From positions 1-61,545 of the IMG/VR virus record IMGVR_UViG_3300009514_000363: a DNA stretch of 61,545 nt, one strand, 5' to 3'. A model generated the notes under the pieces. That model had not been told where the DNA came from, did no database searches, and was given only the letters and a program-made list of their open reading frames with translations. Positions 10,044 through 39,344 of this stretch are shown in pieces (within the stretch, counting starts at the first letter, position 1; each line of letters opens with the position of its first letter). The translations under genes were made by a program, and so were the position numbers. Origin of the DNA: a virus. Taxonomy: Duplodnaviria; Caudoviricetes.

Positions 10044-10501
10044 TAAATTTCAACATATTCTAATTGGGCAACTCTGATTTTGGTAATATTTGATAGCGCA
10101 TAGTTACGCGATATAAAAGCATTTACCGTACTTTGATACTGTTCATATAATTCTTCAACTTCTAACAACAGCGAATGTACGTATATGTATGCGTCTTCAT
10201 TGTCAATGTATCTGTTGATTTCGCGTTCTCCCAATGCTCTTGAATAGTTTTCCTTGTACGATTTAAAAAGGCTTCCTCGTACACGTTCTTCTTCTGCTTG
10301 AAAGAATTTAACTAGTGTATGTAATTCAACTCGACGTTGATCATAGTAATGCAACCATGCAGAATTTTCACTATTCGCGATTTCTAATTTCTTGCCTTTT
10401 ATCTCTAATTGTGTTTTGGCGTTAGAAAGATTTTCTTCATACACGTCTAGTAACGCTGGCAAATTTTTATAATTTTTACCTAATTCTGCGATTTTGCTCA
10501 T
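10043..10501 (-). CDS. uvsY: UvsY-like recombination mediator
   Basis: 152 aa helical protein upstream of uvsW; YKENYSRAL..REINRYID. Confidence 0.65.
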   Translation of the reverse strand: MSKIAELGKNYKNLPALLDVYEENLSNAKTQLEIKGKKLEIANSENSAWLHYYDQRRVELHTLVKFFQAEEERVRGSLFKSYKENYSRALGEREINRYIDNEDAYIYVHSLLLEVEELYEQYQSTVNAFISRNYALSNITKIRVAQLEYVEI

Positions 10502-10522
10502 TTTGCTTATCTTTTATACTTA

Positions 10523-11032
10523 TTAGTTCTTTTCTTTTATATTGTAAAACATTAATGCGCGCCGCTGTTCATCTGTTAATTTTGTTAAGTCAAAATCTGT
10601 AGCAGTGGCTTCATTTGAAGCTCCGCCACTTTCTAAAGGTTCAGAAAAATCATTTGTTTTATTTTCTTGATGAATTTTATGTAGAAAATTTGTAATTGCA
10701 TCTTCATCAGAAGATGATACTAAATCGTAAGGAAGTGACATATGAACAACGCGCTGGAAATAATCAAGATTTTCTTCTGTGATTGAAATCATATTACCAT
10801 CAATTTCAATGGCAGTGCCTGGAGTATAATGCACCATTCCTATAATAACCACTAAGTCATCTATTAAGTTTGCATCTTCCCATGCAACGACGCCGGCGTT
10901 GAATATAGGATCAATATCATTGAGAAATTCTGTAACACAGACAAGACTAGTATGAATTATATCAAATATTTCAAGTGTTTTCTTTTCAAATGCAGAATCC
11001 CTTTCTTCAAAAACCTTTTTTAATTCTTCCAT
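10523..11032 (-). CDS. hypothetical acidic protein
   Basis: 169 aa between primase and uvsY. Confidence 0.6.
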   Translation of the reverse strand: MEELKKVFEERDSAFEKKTLEIFDIIHTSLVCVTEFLNDIDPIFNAGVVAWEDANLIDDLVVIIGMVHYTPGTAIEIDGNMISITEENLDYFQRVVHMSLPYDLVSSSDEDAITNFLHKIHQENKTNDFSEPLESGGASNEATATDFDLTKLTDEQRRALMFYNIKEKN

Positions 11033-15356: not shown

Positions 15357-15658
15357 TTTTGTATTGTATAAGATAGATGTGTGATATTAAAACAGTTTTT
15401 ATGTCTATAGTATATGTCTATAACAAATTTTCCATTTTTAAGATCTGAAATTTTGTTATTTCTTGCATCACTAATAACATTTACCTGTTCCAATTTATAG
15501 TTTTCTGCTTCTTCTTCTAATAGCATTTCAAGTAATGGGACAACACTTTCAATATCTGACGATAAATCTATAAGCATAGTTATTGCTTTTACGTGTTTAT
15601 CTATTACGCTAAGTAACGTCTTACTATGAACATTCTTATGTGTTAATGTAACTTCCAT
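15353..15658 (-). CDS. stand-alone tail-sheath C-terminal-domain-like protein, copy 2 (paralogue)
   Basis: 101 aa; LEQVNVISDARNNKISDLKNGKFVIDIYYRHKNCFNITHLSY aligns with the neighbouring ORF. Confidence 0.55.
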   Translation of the reverse strand: MEVTLTHKNVHSKTLLSVIDKHVKAITMLIDLSSDIESVVPLLEMLLEEEAENYKLEQVNVISDARNNKISDLKNGKFVIDIYYRHKNCFNITHLSYTIQK

Positions 15659-15673
15659 TGCTGATCCTTTTAA

Positions 15674-16525
15674 TTATACACTGAATGCATACTTAATTGC
15701 AGGATGATGTTTATAGCCTTCAAGTTCAAAATCTTCTAATGTTACCCACGTTTCTAAATCTTCAAGAGTTTTAATATTTGGATTAATTTTTAATGTTGGT
15801 AACGATAGTGGTTCTCTTTTAAGTTGAACATTTTTCATTAAATCAAGCTGATCTTCATAGATATGTGCATTTACGATTTTATGAAATGCTTTCGCTGGTT
15901 TAAGTCCTGTAATCTGAGCCATAATCATAAGCAACCATGCCACTTGTACTTGATTGAATCCGTGTCCAAGTGGCAAGTCATCACTGCGTTGATAGCTAGT
16001 AAGATATAGTTCATCGCCCAAAATACTAAACGTATGAGTATGCATACATGACGCTAAACAAGCACGATTAAGTTCAGCAGGATTCCAAAACGTTAGAATT
16101 TCCCTGCGGTCATCATAGCCTTTACTTAGATTATTTATAATTTTTTGAAGTTGATCGAAAGGCTGTCCGTCGCGATCCCTAAATCTACGACCCTGGGCAC
16201 CATAACAATCCCCCATATCATCTACGCCTTTACGGTAAGGATTAGCTAACCATGTAGCATTATCGTTGGCGTTAGCATTCCATGTGTTAGCACCTAACTC
16301 ACGAAATTGGGCAGCGCTAGTATAGCCACGCAAGTAACCCAACATTTCCGCGATTGCGGGTTTCCAGAAAAGTTTTTTGGTGGTCAGGACAGGCAATTTG
16401 CCTTCACTTACATCATAAGTAAGATTGGCATCTATAACAGTCAAACAGCGTTTGCCTGTACGTTCATTCGTTATCCATACTCCATCATCTACTACTCTTT
16501 GACACAAACTAAGATATTCTTTCAT
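15674..16525 (-). CDS. thyA: thymidylate synthase
   Basis: NERTG, LTTKK, catalytic Cys (LASCMH), [19 protein letters not shown]; 283-aa Vibrio/Pasteurella-like type. Confidence 0.97.
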
Positions 16526-30379: not shown

Positions 30380-31263
30380 AAAATGTAAGGCTGAGATTAC
30401 ACCATTACGACTTGTACCTTCGAGCCATTATCCCATCCCCTGCGACAGTTAGGGTTCTGCTCTTATCCACACCCTCATGGGCGTCTACAAGCATGACTGC
30501 CTTTTTTAAAGTGTGGCGATTCACTTATCATGTAAAGCTATTCAAAGTTTCATCTACCGTCAATCCTATCGGACTACAAAGGGTTCGACCCCACCGTGCG
30601 ACTCCGCTTTAACATCATCCGCCTTGCGGGTTTCAGATGACTACATTCACCGAAGTGTGTAGTATTAAGCCATTTTCACTTTACACTGGACGCGTCTTTG
30701 CGTTTTTATTTAAAAGATAGTTGGAATCGAACCAACAGTCTTCTGCTTTAGAGGCAGATGCCGTTACCGTTTGGCTATATCTAACTAGCAATGATGTGCG
30801 CGCCCAGTAGGTTTGTAATCTTTTGAATTACAAAATGCTACACACCACGTATCTTTCTCCTGCCGGATACTCGACCGTCTTTCAAGATCATTGGGTAGCT
30901 TTTAATATACTACCCGACAACCTATCAAACTGGAATAGCGCCCTTAGTTGCAGCTTCGGACTATCTATTCCTACCCTTTATCCCTCGTGGTTCGCACTAT
31001 TGGTTGTCGTTTGGAGATGGCTACCAACCATTCTTCACTGACTCGTGTTCCCTGTGCACCCGAAGGTGAACACAGGCACTTAAACCAGCATTCTTTCCCA
31101 AACTAGCGCTTCGCCATTACGTCCAGCGCTCTTATCACTGAACGACCCTTACGGGCAGGATGAGGCTTGCATTAGCGTACCTGCGAGCAGGCGATGGTTA
31201 AGCTAGATCCCCATCTTTCCCCTTGTTACCAAGGCTTATGACCTAATGCGTCAATTCTTAAAG
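30380..31263 (-). ncRNA. giant structured ncRNA, GOLLD-like, with embedded tRNA-like domain
   Basis: About 880 nt without a credible ORF, more GC-rich than its flanks, with many UUCG/GNRA-capped helices on the minus strand (CACC-TTCG-GGTG, CAC-TTCG-GTG, CCC-GTAA-GGG, CC-GCAA-GG), tandem promoters upstream and an internal tRNA. Family assignment rests on size and context; ends are approximate. Confidence 0.65.
30713..30784 (-). tRNA. tRNA-like domain with CUA anticodon inside the giant RNA
   Basis: GCC-AAACGGTAAC-GGC D arm (Gln-like), TCTGC-CT-CTA-AA-GCAGA, GTTGG-TTCGATT-CCAAC; only 5-bp acceptor AGATA/TATCT and no CCA. Confidence 0.75.
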
Positions 31264-31270
31264 TCCGTGT

Positions 31271-38237: not shown

Positions 38238-38716
38238 AAGTTCAAGATATACTTATAGAAGTATGGGATGACGAAAATGAAAGGGAATTTGAAAATCCTA
38301 TCCCACACGATTCCAGTAAAATGGAAGATGCTTTTGAGTATATGGATGAAGTCGATGGTGATTTGGTAACATTGTATAAACAAGAACGTGGGATAAAAGA
38401 GTTTCCAAGTGGTGCAGAGTATGGTAAAGCATTACAAGTGCAAAGAAACAAGTTTGGTGAAATTACAAATATACCACTTAATAAAATCTTAGCAAGCGAA
38501 ACGCATCTTCATAAAGACCACATTGACAAAATAATTAAAGATGGAGATATAACGGCTTCAAGTAAACTTCCAATACTTTACAAAATGGGAGCAGTTTATT
38601 TTGTAGGTGATGGCAATCATCGCATTGCTGCAGAGATGATACGTGGTAAAAAAAGCGTTGAAGCGCTCGTCCTTGATGCCGATAGAATTCTAAATCAAAT
38701 AAAAAATAAAGGATAA
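38234..38716 (+). CDS. ParB/Srx-like domain protein
   Basis: LPILYK...YFVGDGNHRIAA. Confidence 0.7.
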   Translation: MKVQDILIEVWDDENEREFENPIPHDSSKMEDAFEYMDEVDGDLVTLYKQERGIKEFPSGAEYGKALQVQRNKFGEITNIPLNKILASETHLHKDHIDKIIKDGDITASSKLPILYKMGAVYFVGDGNHRIAAEMIRGKKSVEALVLDADRILNQIKNKG

Positions 38717-38720
38717 ACAT

Positions 38721-39344
38721 ATGGCAGTTCCAAAGTCGCCCTTCTACGTGGTACAAGATTTCCTTACCCCAAAACAATGTGAAATAATTGTTGATAATTT
38801 GGGATATTATTCGCCTGATCTTAACAAAGAAGGCAAGCCAATAAAAATGATGCGACACCATGCAGACTCTGAAAAAATTATTTATAATAAATTCAAATCA
38901 CTAATACCGGATTTTGAAAAATATTACAATTTTGAACATAGAGGTACTGAACCAGTAACGTTTGAATTCATTGCAGAGGGAGTTGAACCAGAAGCTATTT
39001 GTGATAGTTCTAAATGGATTAAGAAGAAATGGGTTAGAACTAAGGACAGAGATTTTAGTGCTGTATTATTTCTAAGCGATTATCAGGAAGATTTACCATT
39101 CGATTCAGATTATGAAGTGTATGGTGGAAAGTTGGAATTCCTGCAACACAAATTTGGATTTAATCCCGAGCGCGGAACGCTTATCGTATATCCAAGCAGT
39201 CCTCATTTTATCAATGCAATATCCCAAATTATTGCAGGTGATTTATTTTTGGCACGTTGGTACATGGCAGGAAAGATGCCATATCTGTACCAGCCGGCTG
39301 ATTTTCCTGGGAATTATCTTAGCTGGTTCTCCGATTTAACATAA
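38721..39344 (+). CDS. 2OG-Fe(II) oxygenase (prolyl-hydroxylase-like) fold protein, possibly degenerate
   Basis: DFLTPKQCE, RDFSAVLFLSD, YGGKLEF, PERGTLIVYPS; no clear HxD iron ligands. Confidence 0.65.
   Translation: MAVPKSPFYVVQDFLTPKQCEIIVDNLGYYSPDLNKEGKPIKMMRHHADSEKIIYNKFKSLIPDFEKYYNFEHRGTEPVTFEFIAEGVEPEAICDSSKWIKKKWVRTKDRDFSAVLFLSDYQEDLPFDSDYEVYGGKLEFLQHKFGFNPERGTLIVYPSSPHFINAISQIIAGDLFLARWYMAGKMPYLYQPADFPGNYLSWFSDLT

Follow-up and report, generated by a model that had tools for sequence, protein, structure and literature searches.

Why does a giant phage RNA carry within its own body a transfer RNA (tRNA)-like domain with the anticodon of an amber suppressor, and is that domain meant to be released? 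The question is raised by a 61,545-nucleotide (nt) stretch of DNA from a virus (Duplodnaviria; Caudoviricetes), positions 1 to 61,545 of the IMG/VR record IMGVR_UViG_3300009514_000363, hereafter the window, on whose minus strand an RNA of the GOLLD family encloses a tRNA-like module with the anticodon CUA and ends just before rpsU, the gene for ribosomal protein bS21. GOLLD is a giant RNA family that self-assembles into RNA-only cages, described in published work as a 14-mer for env-38 and a 12-mer for Streptococcus agalactiae (Kretsch et al., bioRxiv 10.1101/2024.12.08.627333; PMC12990946). The linker of the RNA lies in the cage interior, sometimes with tRNAs, according to the preprint (Kretsch et al., bioRxiv 10.1101/2024.12.08.627333). 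These structures are recent and the function of the cages is still open; the structural papers themselves ask what role the covalently linked tRNAs play. Our answer for the window, to which we assign a probability of roughly 0.6, is that the module is a permanently tethered, non-chargeable tRNA mimic within an RNA cage and not a released suppressor.

The features on which the argument turns are the following.

31264-30386, minus strand: full-length GOLLD RNA, about 879 nt, both ends predicted
31264-30849, minus strand: 5' domain of GOLLD, 416 nt, variable and outside the Rfam model, recognized by covariation and profile matches
30848-30388, minus strand: conserved 3' domain of GOLLD, including the linker with the tRNA module (Rfam RF02032)
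30784-30712, minus strand: embedded tRNA-like module, anticodon CUA (Rfam tRNA, 57.7 bits against a cut-off of 29)
31298-31271, minus strand: proximal sigma-70-type promoter match P2, TTGACA-16-TATAAT, 12 of 12 hexamer positions, with a predicted start near 31264
31383-31356, minus strand: upstream sigma-70-type promoter match P1, TTGACA-16-TATAAT, 12 of 12, a consensus match only
30385-30345, minus strand: A/U-rich spacer between GOLLD and rpsU, 39-49% identical among relatives
30344-30123, minus strand: phage rpsU (bS21, 73 amino acids; Pfam Ribosomal_S21 at 7.3e-16, TIGR00030 at 55.3 bits against a cut-off of 28.95)

The region encodes a true GOLLD RNA of phage origin and adds a member to an established family. 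The covariance model RF02032 is matched over its whole length (model positions 1-416 of 416) with 210.6 bits against a gathering threshold of 150 (E = 3.9e-58, mean posterior 0.95), a score that is unchanged in a local permissive scan. Five matches above gathering thresholds were found when the whole window was scanned with Rfam, namely GOLLD, a permuted transfer-messenger RNA (tmRNA) and three tRNAs. The setting is likewise that of the family: a virus record that encodes a tmRNA and four tRNAs, of which three lie within 4 kb. Between 30345 and 31390, the minus strand holds no open reading frame (ORF) of 50 or more amino acids; four plus-strand ORFs of 52-72 amino acids overlap the GOLLD region.

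The RF02032 model covers only the 3' half of the RNA; a scan of 31264-30849 at E <= 1 gave no Rfam family, a chance plus-strand match over the tRNA aside. Evidence for the 5' domain comes from the window and three relatives. RNAalifold on these four sequences gave 124 consensus pairs in the domain, with 97.8% of cells paired. Nineteen compensatory pairs were counted on a structure derived from the same four sequences, relative to 5.9 ± 2.1 in column shuffles (0 of 500 reached 19) and only one or two in a control with slid partners. An nhmmer profile of the domain found collinear matches in 14 other GOLLD loci (E from 1e-14 to 3e-4), which sit 830 to 447 nt before the GOLLD 3' motif, and both halves therefore belong to GOLLD.

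The three relatives, L122, L158 and L160, score 186-199 bits with the Rfam GOLLD model. L122 comes from a 363,531-bp record, G001, that CheckV rates 100% complete, and was found through its bS21; L158 and L160 are short metagenome contigs found by a pattern scan in which the anticodon stem was fixed and the anticodon left free, and all matches carried CUA. Two pattern scans of viral contigs returned only G001, besides unrelated loci, and one metagenome scan added L158 and L160. Identity between the window and these relatives varies by segment: 82-93% in the promoter, 69-75% in the 5' domain, 88% in the tRNA module, 84-85% in the rest of the 3' domain and 39-49% in the spacer to rpsU. We place the RNA at about 879 nt, from 31264 to 30386, because conservation in the four-way alignment runs from the -35 hexamer to the GOLLD 3' end and the segment identities agree with these limits. 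Both P2 hexamers are kept in all four sequences, conservation starting at the -35 hexamer, and a tandem upstream promoter like P1 is readable in L122. Promoter-like sites in the region number 15, against 7.6 ± 2.8 in shuffles. Only two terminator-like sites were seen (30736-30720 and 30688-30705), both within the linker and at chance level in number. As for transcripts, two metatranscriptome runs stood among the sequencing-run matches, with shares of at most 0.06; reads from four public runs placed only contigs of relatives, mostly less than 95% alike, and contigs of this kind do not report ends, strand or level.

The order promoter, GOLLD with its tRNA-CUA module and rpsU is found in four of four clade members (the window, L122/G001, L158 and L160). 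The rpsU start lies 43 nt past the Rfam 3' end of GOLLD, and no promoter-like or terminator-like site was found on the minus strand of the spacer. The linkage appears to be a property of this clade: by tblastn, rpsU stood beside none of 120 other GOLLD loci among the matches listed, and of four phage bS21 loci examined only L122 had a GOLLD, a more distant one (L123, 70% identity) having none. An earlier note on this DNA, made from the letters alone, had described a GOLLD-like, helix-rich RNA of about 880 nt, free of ORFs and enclosing an amber-anticodon module, with rpsU some 35 nt beyond its end and no obvious terminator between. The account has held up well: the cmscan search gave a full-model RF02032 match, the covariation analysis supported the helices, the freedom from ORFs applies to the minus strand, the spacer is indeed without a terminator-like site, and the arrangement as a whole recurs in three relatives.

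In the covariance-model alignment the module itself falls in the variable linker, after the first hairpin of the 3' domain and before the pseudoknotted core. ARAGORN reports it at 30785-30711 as a regular cloverleaf with the anticodon CTA. Its D, anticodon and T arms are regular, the elbow-forming residues are kept, and the anticodon loop, C-U-CUA-A-A, has the canonical 7 nt with U33 and A37. The acceptor is another matter. Written over seven positions, it is UUAGAUA/UAUCUUU: the top two, U1.U72 and U2.U71, do not pair, and the five below them do. The discriminator is a U followed by an A-rich run, with no encoded CCA. The cloverleaf is thus that of a chargeable tRNA, whereas the seven-pair acceptor and the encoded 3' CCA are both missing. 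The three relatives share one common module sequence (67.9 bits with the Rfam tRNA model), in which the 5' acceptor strand is AAUGAUA with a U3.U70 mismatch and the 3' strand is the same UAUCUUU. Between the window and the relatives, the anticodon arm is identical at 17 of 17 positions and the T stem shows a compensatory change from U-A to C-G. The module is under selection, since it is 88% identical where the 5' domain is 69-75% and the spacer 39-49% identical, and since its changes include compensatory ones. The internal tRNA-like domain of the earlier note, with its CUA anticodon, five acceptor pairs and lack of CCA, was thus recovered by Rfam, ARAGORN and the acceptor parse; the Gln-type D arm that it also saw was not borne out, the nearest relatives of the module being GOLLD-embedded UCU and UUA modules and not tRNA-Gln.

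Is this defective acceptor peculiar to one phage? Searching viral contigs for an exact motif of the GOLLD 3' end gave at least 120 stretches, 80 of them with 2-kb flanks. At least 18 of these 80, a lower bound as some loci end too early upstream, have a tRNA on the same strand whose end lies 306-329 nt ahead of the motif, where the module of the window also lies. With the module of the window, those of its three relatives and those of two loci from a further scan, the total is 24 embedded modules with 20 distinct sequences, which compare with free-standing tRNAs as follows.

Non-pair in acceptor positions 1-3: embedded 20/24, free tRNAs of the same loci 13/142
Non-pair in acceptor positions 4-7: embedded 1/24, free tRNAs of the same loci 14/142, the latter partly parse errors on long-arm tRNAs
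CCA after the discriminator: embedded 1/24, free tRNAs of the same loci 127/142
G at position 1: embedded 4/24, free tRNAs of all loci 106/175
U at position -1: embedded 11/24, free tRNAs of all loci 128/175

By position, mismatches fall at 7, 8 and 11 of 19 for positions 1, 2 and 3, and at 0-1 for positions 4-7. The same holds for whole records: free tRNAs encode CCA in 40 of 44 cases in G001, 27 of 27 in G022, 28 of 28 in G023 and 23 of 26 in G009, and each of these four records has an embedded module without it. The discriminators of embedded modules differ from those of free tRNAs with the same anticodon for Trp, Asn, Gln, Arg and CUA, and agree for Lys and Ile. The embedded anticodons are UUU, UCU, GUU, UUG, CCA, UAU, UAG, AUU, GCU, UUA (L035/G022) and, in the present clade, CUA. 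One module has an 8-nt anticodon loop and others are non-canonical at position 33 or 37, while the modules that read as Ser GCU and Leu UAG have no long variable arm, so that the anticodon misfits the tRNA class.

With acceptor and anticodon masked, 13 of the 20 modules have another embedded module as nearest neighbor, a proportion that chance would put at about 13%; the module of the window is closest to a UCU module (84%) and then to the UUA module (80%). Likewise, the D and anticodon stems covary across the modules of other GOLLDs. As nearest neighbors are mostly embedded modules despite their differing anticodons, the modules are an inherited part of a GOLLD subfamily, in which the tRNA body is kept, the features of processing and charging are not, and anticodons drift or switch. 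A free tRNA with the same anticodon is present in G001, G023 and G009 and absent in G022; for sense anticodons such twins are uninformative, because these phages carry near-complete tRNA sets. Pairing of the anticodon loop within its own GOLLD was considered and rejected, reverse-complement 6-mers occurring in 5 of 21 cases as opposed to 39% of 404 mismatched loop/GOLLD pairings.

Three further observations on these loci may be recorded. The record of L035, G022, is a complete 214-kb phage whose embedded module (15632-15705) has the ochre anticodon UUA and whose tRNA array includes, at another place (10487-10561), a canonical tRNA-CUA with CCA. In L155, the GOLLD 5' domain is immediately preceded by a weak tRNA (601-670, 37.9 bits) that reads CTA, and the module embedded in this GOLLD, with the anticodon AUU, is the only one followed by CCA. 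Finally, a tRNA-Met (CAT) begins 25-33 nt past the GOLLD 3' motif in at least 12 loci (L021, L024, L042, L045, L057, L058, L072, L079, L085, L089, L111 and L118). At these loci RNase P could define the GOLLD 3' end; in the window, rpsU takes that position.

The question of release must also be put to the surrounding genome, where four genes are relevant.

29435-29358, minus strand: free-standing canonical tRNA-CUA of the amber suppressor type (Rfam tRNA, 61.3 bits)
30118-29498, minus strand: divergent PP-loop ATPase ORF, 206 amino acids, starting 4 nt past the rpsU stop
36002-34830, minus strand: ATP-dependent RNA ligase gene (Pfam RNA_ligase at 2.9e-21; TIGR02306 at 248.6 bits against a cut-off of 151)
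18131-17421, minus strand: Thg1-like gene (Pfam Thg1 at 2.8e-25), the presence of which the earlier note had already recognized

ARAGORN finds four tRNAs in the window, two of them with CTA (30785-30711 and 29435-29358). The second, 1 kb downstream of the module, has a 7-pair acceptor, A73, an encoded CCA and an 11-of-12 promoter match of its own at 29501-29473. It also follows rpsU in L122 and L158, and its sequence is unrelated to that of the embedded module. A nearest-neighbor comparison gave no clear assignment of its amino-acid identity. Recoding of TAG was rejected, on statistics of stop-free ORFs under four codes and on long ORFs that are intact under table 11 in both the window and G001. 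TAG ends 3 of 63 window ORFs and 39 of 370 G001 ORFs at a floor of 100 amino acids (50 of 456 in G001 at 80), below its share of 19-20% among stop trinucleotides. Long in-frame stretches past TAG start with ATG within two or three codons and are the next genes, and the same is seen past TAA.

The Thg1-like gene has an 80% identical homologue in G001 (238520-239227), and G001 also has an ORF for a nucleotidyltransferase of the PolyA_pol/CCA-adding type. The Thg1 family PF04446 was found in none of 45 other GOLLD-bearing virus records, a weak negative as most are fragments, but one that includes the complete G022. A Thg1-like gene as the general partner of tRNA-bearing GOLLDs was accordingly rejected, on this count and on the free tRNAs of G001, which lack the 5'-mismatch signature. 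A review of jumbo phages treats Thg1 as sporadic and CCA-adding enzymes as common, both as general tRNA repair (PMC7824862).

For the fate of the module the earlier note had put forward two conjectures, display as a decoy (for anticodon nucleases or UAG codons) or excision and repair, for example by the Thg1-like enzyme. The data prove neither, but taken as a whole they favor a module that is displayed and not charged. They do so because a defective acceptor top and a missing CCA are the rule for embedded tRNAs and the exception for free ones, and because Thg1-like genes are absent from 45 of 45 other records, among them a complete phage with a mismatched module. The tethered reading also agrees with the northern result for Mycobacterium aubagnense, whose GOLLD has a "pseudo tRNA" inside for which no expression was found (PMC6582537).

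How such a device might work can be outlined. Host RNA polymerase would transcribe GOLLD and rpsU, perhaps with the PP-loop ATPase gene, from one or both consensus sigma-70 promoters; the co-transcription is suggested by the promoter matches, the 43-nt spacer without a terminator or promoter match and the conserved synteny. The RNA of about 879 nt would fold into the 5' and 3' domains of GOLLD, as the covariance model and covariation support, and would multimerize, by analogy with the solved GOLLD structures, into a cage with its linkers turned inward. The CUA module would fold as an L-shaped tRNA body and, undergoing neither maturation nor aminoacylation, would stay covalently tethered. A dozen or so tRNA mimics with the amber anticodon would then sit in each cage as bait for a partner that recognizes tRNA, and any genuine amber suppression by the phage would be the work of the canonical tRNA-CUA 1 kb downstream.

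On the identity of that partner we can be far less definite. The ribosome or translation factors are a possible, if doubtful, target, and a tRNA-targeting or tRNA-modifying enzyme is a slightly less probable one; the rest of our rough split goes to a purely architectural or cargo role, or to something else. Host tRNA sets normally have no CUA tRNA for an anticodon nuclease to target. By this reasoning of ours the decoy for anticodon nucleases, an attractive idea for the UUU, GUU and UCU modules, would fit CUA poorly. It is tempting to join these threads, although we offer the result tentatively and would not wager on it at even odds. GOLLD modules would be a distinct, vertically inherited class of non-chargeable mimics, and each cage would present some 10-14 anticodon arms at once, a multivalent display directed at the translation machinery or at host factors that target tRNAs; in the present clade the bait would copy the anticodon of the phage's own amber suppressor and share a transcript with bS21, which would point to a ribosome-directed device. 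The traits of the proposed class are an open acceptor top, no CCA, no -1/+1 context of the RNase P type, off-rule discriminators and freely shifting anticodons, including CUA and UUA.

Several points weigh against a tethered mimic. Cage formation is assumed here from homologues, and the promoters, the transcript and its ends are known from sequence alone, the public reads being contigs of distant relatives. The counts over 24 modules are neither independent nor exhaustive, as only 20 sequences are distinct and the scans give lower bounds. The module scores as a good tRNA, here and even more so in the relatives, with a body such as a decoding tRNA needs, and its anticodon is that of the free suppressor, so both could serve suppression. 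Nor does the lack of CCA decide the matter: endonucleolytic RNase Z naturally acts on precursors that have none, and an endonuclease is what would be needed to free the module from the middle of a long structured RNA. In addition, the two defects of the module could be mended by enzymes that the clade possesses, a Thg1-like protein and (in G001) a nucleotidyltransferase of the CCA-adding type. The acceptor of the window also departs from that of its relatives in the 5' strand only, with no change in the 3' strand, as templated 5' repair predicts.

These last points lead to the best of the competing explanations, in which the module is the precursor of a suppressor. It would be cut out by RNase P with RNase Z or RNase E, its 5' end would be rebuilt on the 3' strand by the phage's Thg1-like 3'-5' polymerase, CCA would be added and the product would read UAG, the cage serving as a store that delays release. 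Much about the locus suits such a scheme. The Thg1-like gene is present in both the window and G001, the CCA-adding-type ORF in G001, and an RNA ligase gene adjoins the locus; the tRNA body and anticodon loop are intact; and repair templated by the invariant UAUCUUU would turn UUAGAUA and AAUGAUA into one product throughout the clade. The mismatches are nearly confined to acceptor positions 1-3, the same pattern as in substrates of mitochondrial 5' tRNA editing. A review likewise proposes an "inhibited storage" of embedded tRNAs (PMC12990946). The scheme is nevertheless unlikely. The module of G022 has a mismatch at position 3 in a complete genome where no Thg1 gene was found, so repair cannot be the general explanation of the mismatches, and none of the other 44 records, most of them fragments, yielded such a gene either. 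The 5'-mismatch signature is seen in 0 to 1 of the 44 free tRNAs of G001, which leaves the Thg1-like enzyme without obvious other substrates for editing. The embedded discriminators break identity rules that the free twins keep, and the phage already has a canonical tRNA-CUA with CCA and a promoter match of its own. TAG is an ordinary though rare stop in these phages, which show no signs of recoding. Finally, the mature embedded tRNA was not detected in M. aubagnense (PMC6582537).

A tethered mimic has also to be weighed against a role in cis, in which GOLLD is mainly a giant 5' leader that controls the stability or translation of the rpsU message and the tRNA module is incidental. The gene order itself invites the thought, for rpsU follows within 43-60 nt in four of four clade members, the spacer holds no promoter or terminator match and, judged by eye, there is no obvious Shine-Dalgarno sequence in it. 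Against this stand the wide distribution of the RNA family and the restriction of the linkage to one clade (rpsU at none of the 120 other loci among the matches listed, and a bS21 gene without GOLLD in L123); the spacer, moreover, is conserved less than any other segment, where a regulatory junction would be expected to be kept, and the GOLLDs solved so far act as free multimers (Kretsch et al., bioRxiv 10.1101/2024.12.08.627333; PMC12990946). We regard a cis-acting leader as quite improbable. Least probable is a decaying tRNA pseudogene riding as a neutral passenger in a variable linker: the degenerate acceptor tops, the missing CCA, the occasional abnormal anticodon loops and the "pseudo tRNA" label given in the M. 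aubagnense report (PMC6582537) would suit one, but the module is the most conserved segment of the clade, down to its anticodon arm, and its place in GOLLD is fixed. Compensatory changes are seen across lineages in the D, anticodon and T stems, and 23 of 24 modules retain acceptor pairs 4-7.

The remaining genes of the window describe the phage more than the RNA. The record is estimated to be 18% complete, a fragment of a huge phage, with T4-like replication genes; its genes include those for a clamp loader, a UvsW-like helicase, a family-B polymerase, ClpP, Acb1, thymidylate synthase, DHFR and peptide deformylase. Four further features may be listed.

34247-32838, minus strand: CsgG-like protein (4.7e-21); the gene and its neighbors are missing from G001 at this position
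26101-21278, minus strand: complete PrkA/DUF444/SpoVR triad, with very strong Pfam matches
13836-13306, minus strand: Acb1 anti-CBASS homologue (1.7e-38)
13299-13038, minus strand: permuted (two-piece type) tmRNA, 94 bits; G001 and XacN1 have one too

In G001 the RNA ligase gene immediately precedes the GOLLD promoter, orf177 and an HNH endonuclease gene lie downstream, and the CsgG-like, orf251, orf115 and PP-loop genes of the window are absent from the locus. The PP-loop ORF has weak matches to QueC (C-terminal), to the TilS N-terminal domain and to ThiI, all far below curated cut-offs, and no homologue of it was found in the complete G001. Standing between rpsU and the canonical tRNA-CUA, the predicted ATPase might conceivably have a role in tRNA modification.

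Modules that look built not to mature, and that evolve as a lineage with changing anticodons, argue for display or bait over the supply of tRNAs, and through the conserved, predicted GOLLD-bS21 operon a clade of huge phages ties GOLLD genetically to the ribosome. Were the repair scheme true instead, a phage Thg1-like enzyme would edit the 5' end of a tRNA, to our knowledge the first such case in a phage. The presence of tRNAs in the GOLLD linker is already in print, and the feature is in this respect less novel than the earlier note assumed. The new points are the amber anticodon in a linker module, the conserved GOLLD-bS21 operon in one phage clade, with its probable co-transcription, and the systematic evidence that linker modules are tRNA mimics and not tRNA genes. 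A literature search gave, among the matches listed, no paper that combines GOLLD with amber, rpsU or bS21, which is no proof of absence in print; for GOLLD together with suppressor, none of the papers listed was about the RNA, and by their topics most matches look like an unrelated word.

Among known systems, the closest are of course other GOLLDs, with which the RNA of the window shares a full covariance-model match, two domains with a variable linker, a length above 800 nt, a phage origin and tRNA genes nearby. It departs from env-38 and the S. agalactiae GOLLD in holding a module with a stop-codon anticodon, CUA, in its linker, and in being known from its sequence only. It departs from other loci in being followed by rpsU, where at least 12 sampled loci have a tRNA-Met 25-33 nt after the motif.

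Editing by Thg1-like proteins offers a second comparison, such proteins carrying out 5' tRNA editing in the mitochondria of amoebozoa and chytrids. Mismatches in the first three acceptor pairs, an intact 3' strand as a possible template and a Thg1-like gene in the same genome are all found here; unlike in those systems, only the one embedded module in the phage genome shows the pattern, and most module-bearing GOLLD phages have no Thg1-like gene found in the DNA searched.

Among mycobacterial GOLLDs with a tRNA in the single-stranded linker, those of Mycolicibacterium have a tRNA-Phe (PMC12990946). The likeness to the window is plain, a tRNA within a single-stranded linker, and in M. aubagnense the embedded copy has been judged a pseudo-tRNA without a separate transcript (PMC6582537). 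The mycobacterial GOLLDs differ in belonging to bacterial tRNA arrays and in having a sense anticodon, whereas the window comes from a huge lytic-type phage and has an amber anticodon with a canonical twin downstream. OLE RNA, another giant ornate bacterial RNA, has been linked to bS21 (PMC12054373; Kretsch et al., bioRxiv 10.1101/2024.12.08.627333), and the giant RNA of the window is likewise linked genetically to a bS21 gene, although it belongs to a different RNA family and host group and the link is one of gene order in a single phage clade.

Finally, the cultured Xanthomonas jumbo phage XacN1 (AP018399.1) has an unannotated GOLLD of 227.3 bits (L181 2404-2817, at about 38570-38983 of the record). 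It lies in a 2.5-kb feature-free gap, and its neighbors are a permuted tmRNA, an array of tRNAs and a gene annotated as "tRNA-Sup", a translation-related set similar to that of the window. It differs in having no embedded tRNA (414 nt for 416 model positions) and no rpsU annotated within 2.5 kb on either side. Though free of a module, the XacN1 GOLLD is a laboratory entry point to the family.

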